Positions 10,620 to 64,000 of a DNA stretch of 64,000 nucleotides are shown here, one piece after another. Both the position numbers and the translations under genes were made by a program. The stretch comes from Octopus vulgaris. Taxonomy: Eukaryota. Location of the stretch: contig OX597821.1 in the NCBI GenBank assembly GCA_951406725.2, positions 59,148,001-59,212,000 of the forward strand. Reading direction: 5' to 3'. A model generated the notes under the pieces. The model was given only the letters and a program-made list of their open reading frames with translations, was not told the DNA's origin and did no database searches. How positions within the stretch are numbered: position 1 is the stretch's first letter; each line of letters starts with the position of its first letter.

Positions 10620-10780
10620 ACACAAGTATAACCATCCGAAATTGCAAAAATAATCTGGAACTCGACCGAAGAAAGAAAACTCCGAATGGCCCGTCCTTGT
10701 TTTCTTTGTATCGTCTGTTGTCCCTTTTTTTTGTATCACCTAACTATCTGGATGTTTTGCGTTCTTGTCCCATTTTGCAT

Positions 10781-10785
<5 letters not shown>
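10620..10785 (+). mobile_element. PLE-like terminus, family P2, inside a SINE A copy (head 10440-10600, tail 10848-10940)
   Basis: Ends ...ggatgttttgcgttcttgtcccattttgcat(TA)n. An inverted homologue is at 36300-36430; related copies are at 22510 and 61995. Confidence 0.55.
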
Positions 10786-22325: not shown

Positions 22326-22685
22326 CAAAAACAGAACAAGAACGTAACGGGCGACAATGAAAACATACGGACAGATGAACGATACAAAATCGTGTAACAT
22401 TTTCTCTGTTTACTCGTTTTTTTTTTTGTCCGTGTTGTCGCACATATTCGCTCGCTTTCTTCCAAAAATTTAATGCCCTTATCTTAGATTTTTGGAGCCT
22501 ACCAATTTTGAATTACCTCAAGTGTAACAGGCCGAAACTGTAATGATGATTGGAAGCTAGACTGATGAATAGAAAGCCACGAATGTTCATGCGCTGTTTT
22601 TCCTGCCCGTCTTTGTATCATCTATCTATCCGTATGTTTTCATTGACATCCGTTACGTTCTTGTTCCGTTTTTTTTTTTGCATTT
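22325..22685. mobile_element. Inverted pair of PLE-like termini (family P2)
   Basis: 22327-22390 is the imperfect reverse complement of 22611-22675; microsatellites flank both ends. Confidence 0.65.
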
Positions 22686-22759
22686 ATATATACATATAGT
22701 AACATACGTACACCTTTTGCTCAGCTTGTAAGTAATACACACACATACATATATATATA

Positions 22760-33166: not shown

Positions 33167-35713
33167 TTTAACCTCCCTCATGTGAACTGGCCCACAAATA
33201 CTCCGAAGTTAGGCAAGTGCTCTACATCAGATAGGGCAGCAGCAGAACTGCTCTTTAATCTGATGGATGAGTATTTCCTGACTCAGCTAGTGCTTGAACC
33301 AACGAGACAGAATAAAACGATCTTGGATCTGGTACTGACCAATCACTCTAGCTACGTTCACAGCATTTCAGTCGAAAAACTCTCCTCTCAGACCACGACA
33401 TGGTACTCTGCAATCTTAATTCCCGACGTATAAAAACCAAACCAGCCAATCCCACTCCATGGCACCCATTTGACAACATAAATTTCCACAAAGCGGACTG
33501 GGGAACAATCAGAAAGGATCTGTCTTCCATCGACTGGTCTTTTACTCTCAATTCCCCTCATATTGAAACCGCGTGGCAGCACTTTGAAACCATTGTCACC
33601 GACACATGCTCTAAACACGCTCCCAAGAAATCTACTAACACAAACAGAAACCGGCTCCCTAAAAAGAAAAAAACACTCATCAGGCGCATCAAAAGACTCA
33701 ACAAAAAAATCAACCAATTAAAATATTCCCACACGCAACATCCACATTCAACAACAATGAAAAGACTAGAGCTGGAAAAACTTCATCTGCAGACTAACAT
33801 GAAAACCTCCATTGAAAATCAAAGAGCTGTGGAGGAACAATGGGTAATCAAAAACATCAAACAGAACCCAAAAGTGTTCTATTCTTATGCAAATAAGCAT
33901 AGAACCACTGTCTCACCTATTGGGCCATTGATTGATGAAAACGGCATTCCCCAACACGATGCTAAAGAAATGGCAGAAATACTGCAGAAACAATATTGCT
34001 CTGTCTTCAGTGTTCCCACTGATATTGATGTGAGGGAAACGAACGAAGCTGACTCCCAACACAAAATCGCCAGTCTCCTAAAGGAATGTAGATATCAACT
34101 TGCAGTCCATCTGACCAACCTCTGGAGAAACTCGTTAGACGCAGGTTATATACCGAAAAAGTTTCTATCCCAGTCGGTCATCCCGGTTTTCAAACAGGGA
34201 AACAGATCCCTCGCAGTCAACTATCGCCCAATCTCACTCACCTCCCACATCATTAAAGTGTTTGAAAGAGTGTTAAGATCAAGGATAGCTGACTTCCTGG
34301 AGACCCACAAACTCCTAAATTCAAATCAACATGGCTTTCGCTGTGGCAGGGACTGTCTAACACAGCTCTTACACCACATTGAAGATGTACTCAAAGCCTT
34401 GGGAACAGGTTCGAACTCTGACGTCATATACCTTGACTTCAGTAAAGCGTTCGACAGGGTAGACCATAACATCCTACTCTCAAAATTGGCAAATGTTGGA
34501 ATCCGTGGAAAAGTTCTACACTGGATTCAGCATTTCCTAGCGAATAGAACACAACATGTTGTAGTTGATGGAGTCCACTCAAACCCAGCAAAAGTCACCA
34601 GCGGTGTTCCCCAGGGAACTGTTTTGGGTCCGCTACTCTTCATAATTTATGTAAACGACCTTTCCAGTGTCGTACATCACTGCAAAGTGAAAATATTCGC
34701 TGATGACACTAAGCTCCAGCAAATCGTCAATGAAGAAGCAGACCGAACTCAACTCCAGTCTGACCTATATGCTGTGAGTCAATGGGCAGACAGAAACAAA
34801 ATGCAACTGAATGAGGGAAAATTTGAGCTGATGCATTTTGGAAGAAATTCCTCACTAAAACAACCATACTCTCTTCCTTCAGGGGAACCGCTCACAGCCT
34901 CTAACAATATCAGAGACCTGGGTGTAATTGTTGATGACGATCTCAGTTGGAGTGCACACATCAACAAGAAGGTCGATACAGCTCGTAGGATGAGTTCCTG
35001 GATCTTAAGAACTTTCCGGTCCAGAGAACAAGGTGTCATCATACCACTTTTTTCATCCTTTGTACGGCCACACCTTGAATACTGCTGCCCACTGTGGTCT
35101 CCTCACACAAGACAAAACATCTCCAGAATTGAGTCACCCCAGAGGGCTCTTACTAAACAAATTGAAGGCATGGCTGCTCTCGACTATTGGGATCGCCTTA
35201 AAGCCTTGAAACTTTACTCCCTCCAGCGTCGCCGTGAGCGGTACATCATTTGTACGATGTGGAAAATATACCGCCAACTTTGCCCAAACGACCTAAACAT
35301 TAGCTTCAAGGTTCATCCGAGACTTGGACCACGGGCTATACGTCCCCTGCCAAATTCAAGATCACAACATACATGTACACTGCAACATAATTTCTTTTCC
35401 TCAACAGGCCCTGCCCTATTTAACATTGTCCCGAGGGAGATCAAAGAGGAAAAGGATCCCATCAACTTCAAACATAGTCTGGATAGATTCCTTCAAAGAA
35501 TACCAGACAAGCCACCCATAATTGGATACAACTCACCCAACAAGAACTCACTACTTGAACAAAACTGGATACAACTCACCCAACAAGAACTCACTACTTG
35601 AACAAAACTTGACTTAAACAGGATTCGAATAATCCTATCAGGTGGTGCTATTAAGTTAGACATGGCCTGGACCAATCTCTGGTCGAAACATATCTAAGTT
35701 TTATCTAAGTTTT
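33167..35713 (+). mobile_element. 5'-truncated CR1/L2-type LINE
   Basis: C-terminal part of an APE endonuclease (FNLPHVNW, EPTRQNKTILDLVLTN), the RT ORF, a 3' UTR and the tail (tatctaagttt)2. Confidence 0.92.
33400..35601 (+). CDS. LINE ORF2 reverse transcriptase, 733-aa open stretch; probably non-functional
   Basis: NYRPISLTS, QHGFR, YLDFSKAFDRV, GVPQGTVLGP, FADD, DLG and VRPHLEYC. Frameshifted from the endonuclease near 33385, and the usual PGPDG block appears to be missing near 34065. Confidence 0.9.
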   Translation: MVLCNLNSRRIKTKPANPTPWHPFDNINFHKADWGTIRKDLSSIDWSFTLNSPHIETAWQHFETIVTDTCSKHAPKKSTNTNRNRLPKKKKTLIRRIKRLNKKINQLKYSHTQHPHSTTMKRLELEKLHLQTNMKTSIENQRAVEEQWVIKNIKQNPKVFYSYANKHRTTVSPIGPLIDENGIPQHDAKEMAEILQKQYCSVFSVPTDIDVRETNEADSQHKIASLLKECRYQLAVHLTNLWRNSLDAGYIPKKFLSQSVIPVFKQGNRSLAVNYRPISLTSHIIKVFERVLRSRIADFLETHKLLNSNQHGFRCGRDCLTQLLHHIEDVLKALGTGSNSDVIYLDFSKAFDRVDHNILLSKLANVGIRGKVLHWIQHFLANRTQHVVVDGVHSNPAKVTSGVPQGTVLGPLLFIIYVNDLSSVVHHCKVKIFADDTKLQQIVNEEADRTQLQSDLYAVSQWADRNKMQLNEGKFELMHFGRNSSLKQPYSLPSGEPLTASNNIRDLGVIVDDDLSWSAHINKKVDTARRMSSWILRTFRSREQGVIIPLFSSFVRPHLEYCCPLWSPHTRQNISRIESPQRALTKQIEGMAALDYWDRLKALKLYSLQRRRERYIICTMWKIYRQLCPNDLNISFKVHPRLGPRAIRPLPNSRSQHTCTLQHNFFSSTGPALFNIVPREIKEEKDPINFKHSLDRFLQRIPDKPPIIGYNSPNKNSLLEQNWIQLTQQELTT

Positions 35714-36204: not shown

Positions 36205-36290
<86 letters not shown>

Positions 36291-36424
36291 TGTATGTATG
36301 CATAAAATACAAAATGGGACAAGAACGCAAAACATCCGGACAGCTAGGTGATACAAAAAGGGACAACAAAACATCCAGATAGACGATACAAAAAATATAT
36401 AAACAAATTTAAAAAGAAAACACG

Positions 36425-44247: not shown

Positions 44248-44720
44248 CGTGTGTGCAACAAAACCTCCATAAACTCCCTCAACAAGTCTGACACCTACCT
44301 GGACTAGAGTCTCATTGAAGGACAACTCTGAAACAACGAAGACACAAAATACAAAAGATTCACACTACATTAAACGTATACACTCCATCGTCAACTGCCA
44401 AACGGATATTACTATTGTTTTGACACCTGGACAGTATTATTTAATCTAGCAGTGTCAATAGTATCAAAATCATAAATGCTGCCTGCGAATTAATAGACAA
44501 GGTGTAGCAGCCAAACATAAAAACAATATATTCATCATGTTGATAAGTCGTCACAGACCTGATTAAAAATCTAATAATAAAGTATACAAAACAAACCAAA
44601 ACGGACATTGCCACCCGAAGCACAGTAGAACTTAAGGACTATAAAACGAACTAAACGTAGTAAAGTTATTAGACATAATCAAAAAATATATGTTGCAAAC
44701 ACAAAACTGAAAATAATGAT

Positions 44721-60639: not shown

Positions 60640-61150
60640 TATATGGGTACAGGACTTCACCAACGGCGCAAATAACATCAAATACGTAAACAAACAAGGG
60701 GAAAACGAGTGAATTATATAAAAACGAGAAAAAAATGGAAAACAGGACAAATAAACACAGATAGTGGACCTTTCATCAGTTGTCTATCTGCTCCTCATTT
60801 TGAGCATTCAAAGACAATACGACAATACGAGTCTTCAAAGATAGTTGCTCCCATAAATTCTAAAATAAAGTTTAGGATTTATGGAGGGTGAAAGTTGAGA
60901 AAATAAACATAATAGTGAAAACGTACAAGGAAAGCGAACGAAAGCAAACATAGAGGGTAGTAAGACCAAAACGAGAGGAAAATAGGGAACGATGGGAGAA
61001 ACACTTTTATTGAAAAAAGAAAAGATAGAAGAGAGAGAAAAAAACACGTCTGTTCATTTAAATGCAGGAAACGAAAGTTGGTCACGTGAGGAAAAGAAAG
61101 ATGGACGATGGTCACGTGTGAGCAAAGAGCGATAGAGAAAGAGAGTGACA
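60640..61150 (-). mobile_element. PLE-like terminus inside a minus-strand SINE A copy (tail 60345-60560, head 61150-61222)
   Basis: The minus strand has a pyrimidine-rich stretch, caactgatgaaagg and a T-rich tail running toward (TA)n. Confidence 0.45.
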
Positions 61151-61544
61151 GGTCCCACGCAGTGGGGTTGAACCCGTAACCATGTGGTTGGGAAGCAAGC
61201 TTCTTACCACACAGCTACGCCTGATATGTATGTGTGTGGATGTGTGTGTGTGTGTGTATGTATGTACATATATGTAGTCACTATGAGGATATTTAGACCT
61301 CTTATAGGCATACTTTTATCCAAAATACACTGATTTAATATACTGTATTTTCAAGAGATATTTATTTAATGAATATATTATATAAAATATCATAAGATAT
61401 CAAATATCATTATTAAGTTTGAAAACTTTATATATATATAGCTATATAGCGGCATACGTATACCCTTGTGCTCACCTTTTAGTAGATATGTATCTAAATT
61501 TTGTACGACTCTTACTTTATCTTTTATTCCCCCTCTCATTTTTC

Positions 61545-61598
<54 letters not shown>

Positions 61599-61669
61599 TC
61601 TCACATTCCTTGGCCCTCTCTTTTTTTTCTAATCCTCCAATCCCTCTCTCCCCTACCCATCTCTCCTCC

Positions 61670-62184
61670 TTTCACGTGACCGGTGTCCAGCCAGCCATGA
61701 TCTTTCTTTCTTGGTCTGACTGCCGACCGTCAAAACGTCCTGTATCCATCTCCCATGATCCTGCATTTAGGCTTTTAGTTCATACACGCCAGCTCAATTC
61801 GAATCGTTCTCAATCGAAAGACGCCTGTTGTTATTCCTTGTTGTTGTATTCGTAATTGTGTACCATGTTCTCTTTTTTGTTTGTTTGTTTTGTTGTTTTT
61901 TTCGTCTTTGTTGCCGTACACATTCGCTAGCTTTCTTACAAAGGGGTCTAATGCTCTTAGCTTAGACTTTTTGGGGGACAACCAGAACGAATCATCTCAA
62001 GTGTAACTGTCTAAAATGGTCGTAACTTTTGGTACTTGATTGATGAAAAAAAGCCGAGGACGACACGTCTTGGTTTTTTGGGTTTTTTTTTTTGCATGTC
62101 CTTCTAATTGTTGTTTCTCTTGTTCCCCTTTGTGTCGTCTATCTTTCCGAACGTTTTAATGTCCTTTATTGCGTTTTTGTTCCA

Positions 62185-62190
<6 letters not shown>
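61670..62190 (+). mobile_element. PLE-like terminal region (family P2 end)
   Basis: acacgccagct.aatt...cgaaagac.cc is shared with 57120-57162, next to the GIY-YIG remnant. ctcaagtgtaac...tgatgaa is shared with 22516. Confidence 0.5.
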
Positions 62191-62221: not shown

Positions 62222-63510
62222 GAGGGGCGTTCAATAAGTAATGCCTCTGACCCACTTGCAGTTGTTTGATCTAGCTGAAATTGTGCATGTGCAATTACCT
62301 ATATCTCTATAGATTAAGTGGCAAATTACACCTCTGAACTAATTGTGGTTTCCGATTTACAGGTGTTTGAACTGAGTCAAGTGTGAAATGGAGCATGTTG
62401 AGTGTCGAGCAGTGATCCGGTTTTTGTATTTGAAAGGACGCACACCACGGGAGACTTTTCATGAAATGAAAGTAACTTATGGTGATGATGCCTCATCATA
62501 TGACCTTGTAAAACGCTGGCATCGTGAATTCAAACATGGTCGGAACTCTGTGGAAACAGCTCCCAGATCTGGTCGCCCCCTTCTGCCATTGATGAGGCAT
62601 CTGTCTGTCAAGTTGAGGCTGCCATTTTGGAAGATCGACGCATAATTATTCGCCAAATAGCCCATGAGGTCAAGATTAGTACCGGGTCTGTGGAAACTAT
62701 CATTCATGACCATTTGCATATGCAAAAGGTGTCTGCCAGATGGATTCCCAGGTTGCTCACACCTTTCCAGAAGCAAGAACGCGTCGATTGCTCGTGGATG
62801 AATTTGGAGATGTGCCAAGAAGATGAGTCAAAATTTTTCAAAAGACTGATTGCATAGGATAAAACCTGGGTCCATCATTATGATCCAGAGACCAAAGCCC
62901 AGTCAATGCAGTGGAAGCACTGTGACTCATCTTCTCCAAAGAAGGCAAGGGTGCAGCCCTCCGCTGGCAAGGTCATGCTTACAGTCTTCTGGGACCAGGA
63001 CGGAGTAGTGAAGACAGATTTCCTGGCAAAGGGTGCCACAATTACAGGAGTCTATTATGCTTCACTTTTGAGGAAATTAAGAGAAGCTATCAAAATCAAG
63101 AGGCGGGGCAAGATCAGCAAAGGCATCCTCCTCCTGCAGGACAACGCTCCGATCCACAACTCGCGTGTCGCCAGATCAGAAACACAGGCGTGCGGCTATG
63201 AACTCCTCTCCCATCCCCCCTACTCTCCTGACCTTGCACCCTCTGATTTTCACCTCTTCCAGCCATGAAATTGTTTTTGAAAGGAAAGCGTTTCCCAGAT
63301 GATGCAGCCTTGATTTCTGAAGTCACATCGTGGTTGGAGGACCAAGCTGGGGTCTTCTACAAAAACGGTCTTCAGAGCTGCATCAAACGATGGGAGAAAT
63401 GCGTAACTCTGGGTGGTTCCTATGTAGAAAAAGACTAATAACTGTTCCAAGTTTCGTTGCTCTACTGCTATGGGAAGTGGGTCAGGGGCATTACTTATTG
63501 AACGCCTCTC

Positions 63511-63551: not shown

Positions 63552-63663
63552 CCCCCCTCCCCCCAAAAAAAAACGAAGAACAAACACAACAAGAAAGAAC
63601 AACAATGCGAGCACGTGGTACATGCAAAGTATTAGCAGACGCTTAGGGAAGGAAAGCAAGGTA

Positions 63664-63698
63664 GTTTTACGTTTCGAGCAAAGCTCTTCGTCAGAAAC
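63664..63698 (-). ncRNA. Minimal type I hammerhead ribozyme in a PLE-like terminus (about 63560-63750)
   Basis: gttt-CTGACGA-a-gagc ttt gctc-GAAA-cg-TA-aaac. Intact core boxes, helix II gagc/gctc, helix I gttt/aaac and palindromic ACGT helix III. Confidence 0.75.
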
Positions 63699-64000
63699 AG
63701 GGGACAGAGGAAAGTCCAAGAGAAAAGGAAGACGGAATAGATTCAGATTAGTTTATGCTATAGAAATTTATACTGGGTCAAGGAATCTCCAACTAACTAG
63801 GGCAGACCAAAATCCAAGTAGAAGAATGGGCACAGACGAAAGAATTTTTCTACTGAACTTTTCGCTTAGTTTATAGGATTCTAGCAATTTTTCTTTAACA
63901 TTTGTCTTATGCTAACTGGAAGAAAACAAATTTCAACATTATATAATAGTAGAAGGCGGCGAGCTAGCAGAATCTTTAGCACGCCGGACATCACGCTTAG

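Follow-up and report, generated by a model that had tools for sequence, protein, structure and literature searches.

The four sites described here lie in a 64,000-nucleotide stretch of the Octopus vulgaris genome (contig OX597821.1, positions 59,148,001 to 59,212,000 of the forward strand), referred to below as the window. An earlier note, made from the letters of the window alone, had drawn attention to three of them and pointed to a possible fourth. We find it likely, judging from sequence, that each site is a damaged copy of a short non-coding retroelement encoding a self-cutting hammerhead of unusual build, in which the core follows the order cut site, GAAA, CUGANGA, the strands form a knot, and the link between A9 and G10.1 is replaced by a four-way junction. 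Comparison of the families to which the sites belong establishes this layout, together with compensatory changes in stems I-III between families; a hammerhead-type structure that covaries strongly is real, and its intact copies are probably active, with self-cleavage predicted.

Searches of the 2.8 Gb genome with the four sites retrieve four different high-copy families, F1 to F4 (1861, 1256, 1677 and 2648 first-look candidates, respectively), and 30 loci were kept for each. In the majority lines of all four, the cut-site block (S) is followed by the GAAA block (G) and then by the CUGANGA block (C), which is the order of type SGC. Read from 5' to 3', the layout begins with helix X, hairpin Y, the 5' strand of stem II, helix P, the 5' strand of stem III and the NUH triplet; it continues with the 5' strand of stem I, a short linker, the 3' strand of stem II, GAAA, the 3' strand of stem III, the second strand of P (P'), the 3' strand of stem I, CUGANGA and the second strand of X (X'). 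The strand with the cut site lies 5' of GAAA, and the fourth helix, P, links the far ends of stems I and II. When the best six rows per family are compared, SGC gives 6 bp in stem I and 5 bp in stem III in four of four families, whereas the other orders listed reach at most 7 in total. Stem I reads UCGAGU/ACUCGA in F1, UCAAGU/GCUUGA in F2, UCAAGU/ACUUGA in F3 and UUGUCG/CGACAA in F4; stem III reads GCAAU/AUUGC, ACAGU/ACUGU, ACCAU/AUGGU and CUCAU/AUGAG, and the NUH triplets are AUC, GUC, AUC and AUA, in the same order.

The hammerhead core, C3-U4-G5-A6-N7-G8-A9, G12-A13-A14-A15.1 and U16.1-H17, is present in the majority lines and throughout a table of 11 families or single copies. In this table 54 of 55 positions pair in stem I, 55 of 55 in stem II when its upstream strand is used, and 55 of 55 in stem III, with two to five pair types at each stem position except the invariant G10.1-C11.1 and A15.1-U16.1. 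For the strand before GAAA the partner is the one upstream of the cut-site block, and G10.1-C11.1 is always among the pairs. Seven of the 11 entries came from a descriptor that requires pairing and are therefore partly selected, so that only F1-F4 are unselected on pairing; in their majority lines each of the three stems forms 20 of 20 pairs. Aligned automatically, 14 copies of F1-F3 have 90.3% of cells paired and 28 two-sided changes; none of 500 shuffles reaches the observed value, although relatedness inflates this control, and slid registers give 31-52%. Tool-based counts were restricted to F1-F3 given that the automatic alignment of all families misregistered block S; they omit P and Y and are off by one in stem II of F3 and in X of F2. 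Rfam models run on the window and six loci gave no hammerhead or other relevant match, only microsatellite noise. A second GAAA past the CUGANGA box would permit a minimal type I or III fold, which was considered and rejected, as stems I and III reach at most 7 pairs together and stem II is absent.

The features of the window on which this account draws are as follows.

10623..10781, plus strand: copy 1, 3' fragment of an F1 element, with (TA)n at its end.
10632..10641, plus strand: copy 1, block G, with the 3' strand of stem II and GAAA.
10652..10672, plus strand: copy 1, 3' strands of helix P and stem I, and core box with U4 changed to C.
22327..22388, minus strand: inverted 3'-end fragment adjoining the 5' end of copy 2, a 5' inversion typical of Penelope-like elements.
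22454..22495, plus strand: copy 2 (F2), 5' strand of the outer helix X (22454-22461) and hairpin Y (22462-22495), which abuts position 10.1.
22496..22523, plus strand: copy 2, 5' strand of stem II (G10.1 mutated), 5' strand of helix P, and block S.
Within 22529..22577, plus strand: copy 2, 3' strand of stem II, GAAA (22534), 3' strand of stem III, a kink-turn-like bulge, P', 3' strand of stem I, CUGAUGA (22562-22568) and X'.
22703..22735, plus strand: "tail" past the (TA)n of copy 2, with a match to the 5' start of the element itself.
44378..44457, minus strand: a fifth, decayed site, related to the ribozyme region of the octopus Naiad (79% over 80 nt, E 2e-12).
60767..60890, minus strand: copy 4 (F4), full layout, predicted cut 60826/60825.
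61930..62055, plus strand: copy 3 (F3), full layout X, Y, II, P, S, G, C, X'.

All four of copies 1-4 are damaged. Copy 1 lacks X, Y, the 5' strand of stem II and the NUH triplet and is therefore unable to fold; on its own it folds no better than its shuffles (z +1.47). Its homology begins at nucleotide 1.2, one base past the predicted cut. Copy 2 has lost the GUC triplet of its family at the predicted cut 22517/22518. In copy 3 (element at about 61446-62185, predicted cut 61996/61997) both G12 and C3 are mutated, and copy 4 combines a mutated G12 with a short duplication past stem I and a short deletion in P'.

Much of what the earlier note had noticed is borne out. GAAA-type and CUGANGA-type boxes do stand in reversed order after CAAGTRTAAC at all three of its sites (exact at 10623, 22519 and 61998; with one mismatch the word occurs at chance level, 10 seen against 11.1 expected), the same order is found on the minus strand around 60770-60810, and its suspicion of a variant hammerhead agrees with the genomic relatives, whose boxes are intact CGAAA and CTGANGA with a variable N7 and whose stems I-III covary between families once genome copies are collected. 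The three copies are not one motif set, as three sites belong to three different families, nor is the motif a recurring terminus: it lies inside elements of about 770-820 bp, some 150 nt short of their 3' end, and copy 1 alone resembles a terminus because it is 5'-truncated there. The pairings proposed around the boxes rest on mutations specific to copies 1 and 3, are broken in the majority lines of F1 and F3, and begin 9-11 nt past A9, outside the register of stem II. The failure to draw helices I and III at the time has a simple cause: the strand that completes both is found 5' of GAAA, and copy 1 has lost it while in copy 2 it is damaged. The type II, circularly permuted topology then put forward shares with these sites the order GAAA before CUGANGA, yet it is hardly credible: no GSC row stands among the best six listed for the majority lines of F1-F4, none was found in a 600 kb regular-grid sample of the genome, and the base following A9 pairs with C11.1 in none of the 11 entries.

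Long copies of F1-F4 are about 770 bp, non-coding, pyrimidine-rich, variably 5'-truncated and end in (TA)n; eight long copies contain no open reading frame for a reverse transcriptase or endonuclease, and these elements are therefore at most non-autonomous partners. They share with Penelope-like elements 5' truncation, partial tandems, 5' inversions, microsatellite targets and a tail, whose motif is found in 4/30, 3/30, 2/30 and 0/30 copies of F1-F4, respectively. The descriptor, written from F1-F4, recovered further families, F5-F8, in flanking DNA; it matches 37 times in 448 kb of loci fetched with the site queries and not once in each of 10 dinucleotide shuffles, and split-core matches were likewise absent from 20 further shuffles. 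Local searches with 11 family queries find eight ribozyme regions in the grid sample and five in the window, and a rough extrapolation from the two suggests tens of thousands genome-wide. Copies of the young, non-autonomous family F6c (L544-L564) are 97-98% identical, stems I-III are intact in 13 of the 17 scored, and partial as well as full head-to-tail tandems with 819-824-bp repeats occur. In two further families the junction appears different: F5 seems to lack hairpin Y, X abutting stem II (L045 2118-2269, plus strand), and F8 has stems I-III with no clear X or Y (L406 2230-2388, plus strand). These forms may be simpler junction variants. At L260 (minus strand, near 1500-1530) the junction of a 5' inversion falls inside stem I, whose two strands are complementary.

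What sets the layout apart from type SGC is that the 5' strand of stem II lies upstream of the cut site rather than past CUGANGA. X' follows A9 and pairs with the far-upstream X, X is directly followed by hairpin Y, and the 3' end of Y touches G10.1. In 7 of the 12 sequences hairpin Y, chosen without reference to X', has eight of eight pairs without gaps, and folding without guidance gives back both X and Y in the same seven. From this we infer a model in which a four-way junction, with X on Y and stem II on the tandem G-A pairs of the core, holds A9 beside G10.1. A 3-nt bulge with tandem GA lies between stem III and P in F1-F3 and is absent in F4; we take it to be a kink-turn pattern.

Which protein could move such elements? 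Naiads were reported to be without a canonical hammerhead, with eight "half cores" flagged (Craig et al. 2021, PMC8557442). We inspected by eye, around core words, the 54 Naiad consensi in the available parts of the supplement to that paper; words split by line ends escape such an inspection, which covered 58/62 places with CTGATGA, 29/43 with CTGAAGA, 15/23 with CTGACGA and 15/25 with CTGAGGA, as well as the whole of supplement parts 12 and 24. At the 3' end of 9 of the 54 the split layout is complete, X and Y included: three from Acropora, one part-9 entry (Clytia by file order), the entry before Naiad_Plae, Naiad_Plae itself, one part-19 entry, Naiad_Obim and Naiad_Ovul. Two others, from Beroe and Euprymna, show it in part. 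Six nematode consensi (parts 13-16) carry a clean type CSG hammerhead with an intact core, several 3'-end core-word matches in parts 16-19 and 26 fit no layout, and in the bivalve entries the layout was not seen around the core words. Exact matches to the pattern of the octopus Naiad version number 278 in the genome and 0 in the control. Locus L406 contains what appears, by eye, to be the end of a Naiad reverse transcriptase with its 3' untranslated region, and L405 and L407 join that region to the ribozyme; 12 of 12 Naiad ribozyme copies examined are 5'-truncated, and a walk upstream from the ribozyme was swamped by an inserted young repeat. The split-core form is likely the ribozyme that Naiads were reported to lack, and mobilisation of F1-F4 by Naiads is probable by analogy, given the common fold and the (TA)n targets.

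In the sequence of events that we envisage, the rod of P and stem III would bend back (in F1-F3 at the kink-turn) and thereby bring its terminal loop into two pairings with the internal loop; X would stack on Y and keep A9 next to G10.1. By analogy with retrozymes and Penelope-like elements, cutting would trim read-through or multimeric transcripts to one unit of about 800 nt; the unit may circularise, and a Penelope-like, probably Naiad, reverse transcriptase would copy it into (TA)n targets. Head-to-tail tandems of 824, 819 and 775 bp span the cut site, and the template was therefore either uncut or re-closed. The two units of the L564 tandem are identical, with eight variants in common, whereas tandem units differ at 8 sites in L556 and at 19 in L045. 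These data fit, without proving, a retrozyme-like cycle of cutting, circle formation and copying by a Penelope-like enzyme. Animal Penelope hammerheads have been reported to act as dimers, and the pairings could likewise form between two RNAs or two tandem units, one giving the NUH triplet and the GAAA loop and the other CUGANGA and the 5' strand of stem II. Covariation is blind to pairing in cis or in trans, tandem units exist, and F4 is without the kink-turn pattern; on the other hand, in F1-F3 that pattern lies exactly where a monomer must bend, and published SGC ribozymes with the same linker between stems I and II and the same P helix cleave during transcription (available parts of Eckert et al. 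2023, PMC10085705). We regard the dimer as unlikely.

A number of results weigh against a single-molecule, split-core, self-cutting hammerhead. Helix X is its weakest part, with 49 of 72 pairs in register against 32-42 when slid; automatic picking of X, anchored on Y because a greedy choice had taken U-rich upstream tracts in several families, failed in F3, F5, F8 and in two decayed copies of Naiads. F5 shows no Y. A permutation test on F1-F4 gives p 0.04-0.09 and is weak with only four unselected families. In F4, F6a-c and F7, 5 of the 12 sequences, four of five alternative stem II pairs, G-C first, are possible past a 1-nt insert after CUGANGA, which keeps alive the view that an ordinary type SGC fold is the active one and that the upstream strand, X and Y form an inactive or switch state; one nematode Naiad, by eye, has a 1-nt insert in an intact core. 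We nevertheless consider this very unlikely, since F1, F2, F3 and F5 lack the first pair in that register, F8 and two Naiad copies reach only two or three of five pairs, and the upstream strand pairs at all 55 positions with compensatory changes.

Cleavage itself meets similar difficulties. Among 175 genomic copies, chosen by patterns that start at GAAA, eight have their 5' end at -1 to +1 of the cut and 54 in the rest of -25 to +12 (p=0.11); positions beyond -25 were omitted because changes in poly-T length make them unreliable. As 5' ends are not enriched at the cut, the start of copy 1 may be chance. In three raw RNA runs, whose species may differ, F1-like reads are equal on both strands and show no pile of ends, and next to no reads cover the F6c ribozyme; no inference is drawn from the reads for this reason. 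In the available text on an anole Penelope-like element, no read ends fall at its active hammerhead either, and hammerhead cleavage is dispensable for insertion in vitro (PMC11167929). Eckert et al., in the parts available, assume that CUGANGA is inseparable from stem II (PMC10085705), and the core may accordingly not tolerate a break at A9/G10.1. That the boxes would be better conserved than their flanks, a further expectation of the earlier note, holds between families, with a core invariant across 19 aligned sequences and variable flanks, and barely within them, where the flanks are almost as well conserved as the core and G12, being part of a CpG, decays. This is expected of dead insertions, in which selection shows only between families. 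Lastly, an autonomous partner of F1-F4 was not found in the loci examined, and no single one of these joins a Naiad reverse transcriptase to the ribozyme. Given the missing end pile-up in genome and reads and the dispensable cleavage in the anole element, could the fold cut poorly or not at all and be a scaffold of hammerhead origin, retained so that the element's protein has a signal for binding or initiation? Families with little else in common retain all catalytic nucleotides, a variable N7 and the NUH rule (AUC, GUC, AUA, GUA), and G never stands at position 17 in F1-F4, so that we think a mere scaffold quite unlikely and retain the self-cutting hammerhead.

Several other elements were met on the way. 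A 3'-end fragment of F1, truncated downstream of the ribozyme, lies at 36285-36395 (minus strand). Downstream of the fifth site, 44378-44457 (minus strand), the sequence differs from the octopus Naiad type, with (CA)n at its end. An ordinary nested hammerhead core, CUGACGA ... CGAAAC GUA, stands at 63660-63700 (minus strand) and is probably the canonical Penelope-type type I motif; matches in this CGS order number four in the grid sample against two in 20 shuffles. An open frame of 749 amino acids at 33352-35601 (plus strand) encodes a reverse transcriptase of the LINE (long interspersed element) type, and a transposase fragment, presumably Mariner-like, is found at 62858-63268 (plus strand). 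A search for GIY-YIG partners led to L151-L160, a young, near-identical Penelope-like family with a frame of 781 amino acids (reverse transcriptase and C-terminal GIY-YIG endonuclease) overlapping an upstream frame; it was rejected as being without the SGC motif, and an SGC scan and a simple type I pattern gave no adjacent hammerhead. A young repeat of about 200 bp, with copies 96-98% identical and often in inverted pairs, is inserted in a Naiad 3' untranslated region (L236, about 1157-1360). Among viral contigs, 80 of 120 pattern loci were scanned, and the two relaxed matches were judged to be chance.

If the proposed reading is true, a stated rule of the hammerhead, that CUGANGA is joined to stem II, is broken and a textbook ribozyme has a new wiring; non-circular permutations of this RNA, so far a matter of rare metatranscriptome contigs, number tens of thousands in the genome of an animal, and the seeming want in Naiads of a ribozyme found in other Penelope-like elements is explained. 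Searches for nested-stem hammerheads overlook the split-core class, and the young, intact F6c family makes the cleavage claim testable. A wider view seems to us evenly poised between right and wrong: that this would be a fast-cutting natural hammerhead whose catalytic strand has its break at A9/G10.1 made good by a four-way junction, a topology outside the six permutations considered possible, the standard Naiad ribozyme from corals to octopus, one of three openings (SGC, CSG, split) of one knotted ring, with unit-length RNA circles as template. The hammerhead is itself a known kind; its block order with a split core was not found in the literature searched, nor were Naiads described there with a permuted hammerhead, though most subscription papers and the retrozyme preprint's supplements lay beyond the reach of that search.

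How do these elements compare with known systems? Like the retrozymes not built on long terminal repeats (non-LTR), as far as the preprint describes them (bioRxiv 10.64898/2026.07.22.740005), they are short non-autonomous units with a hammerhead and tandem arrays, and rolling-circle copying by Penelope-like proteins has been proposed there. The hammerheads of retrozymes and of Penelope-like elements, in the parts of the sources available (also PMC4209133, PMC7229834), are of the nested type I, whereas here no Rfam hammerhead model matches. With Naiads, as given in the available parts of PMC8557442, they have in common (TA)n targets, 5' truncation, partial tandems, 5' inversions, tails and the 3'-end ribozyme layout, but F1-F4 are non-coding, show no homology beyond the fold in the sequences tested, and do not have the reading frame of the Naiad clade, with its N-terminal GIY-YIG and C-terminal reverse transcriptase. 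Six possible block orders are counted by Eckert et al. (PMC10085705, parts available, as for all that follows from this paper), who described and assayed type SGC hammerheads, HRIMA-1 and variants, from metatranscriptome, metagenome and RefSeq searches; "octopus" and "mollusc" are absent from that text, "penelope" occurs in its references only, and SGC is not reported there from animals. With type CSG, known there from two sequences, our layout shares the ring order of strands, opened elsewhere; in CSG, block C is intact and first and the X/Y clamp is absent. It resembles type SGC in the S-G-C order, the full core, the short linker between stems I and II and a helix P joining the other strands, and differs in that the 5' strand of stem II and P sit 5' of block S and that block C is interrupted at A9/G10.1, where X and Y would clamp it. 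The layout is thus the strand ring of SGC and CSG opened inside block C, so that it would work like SGC while departing from it in the intact block C.
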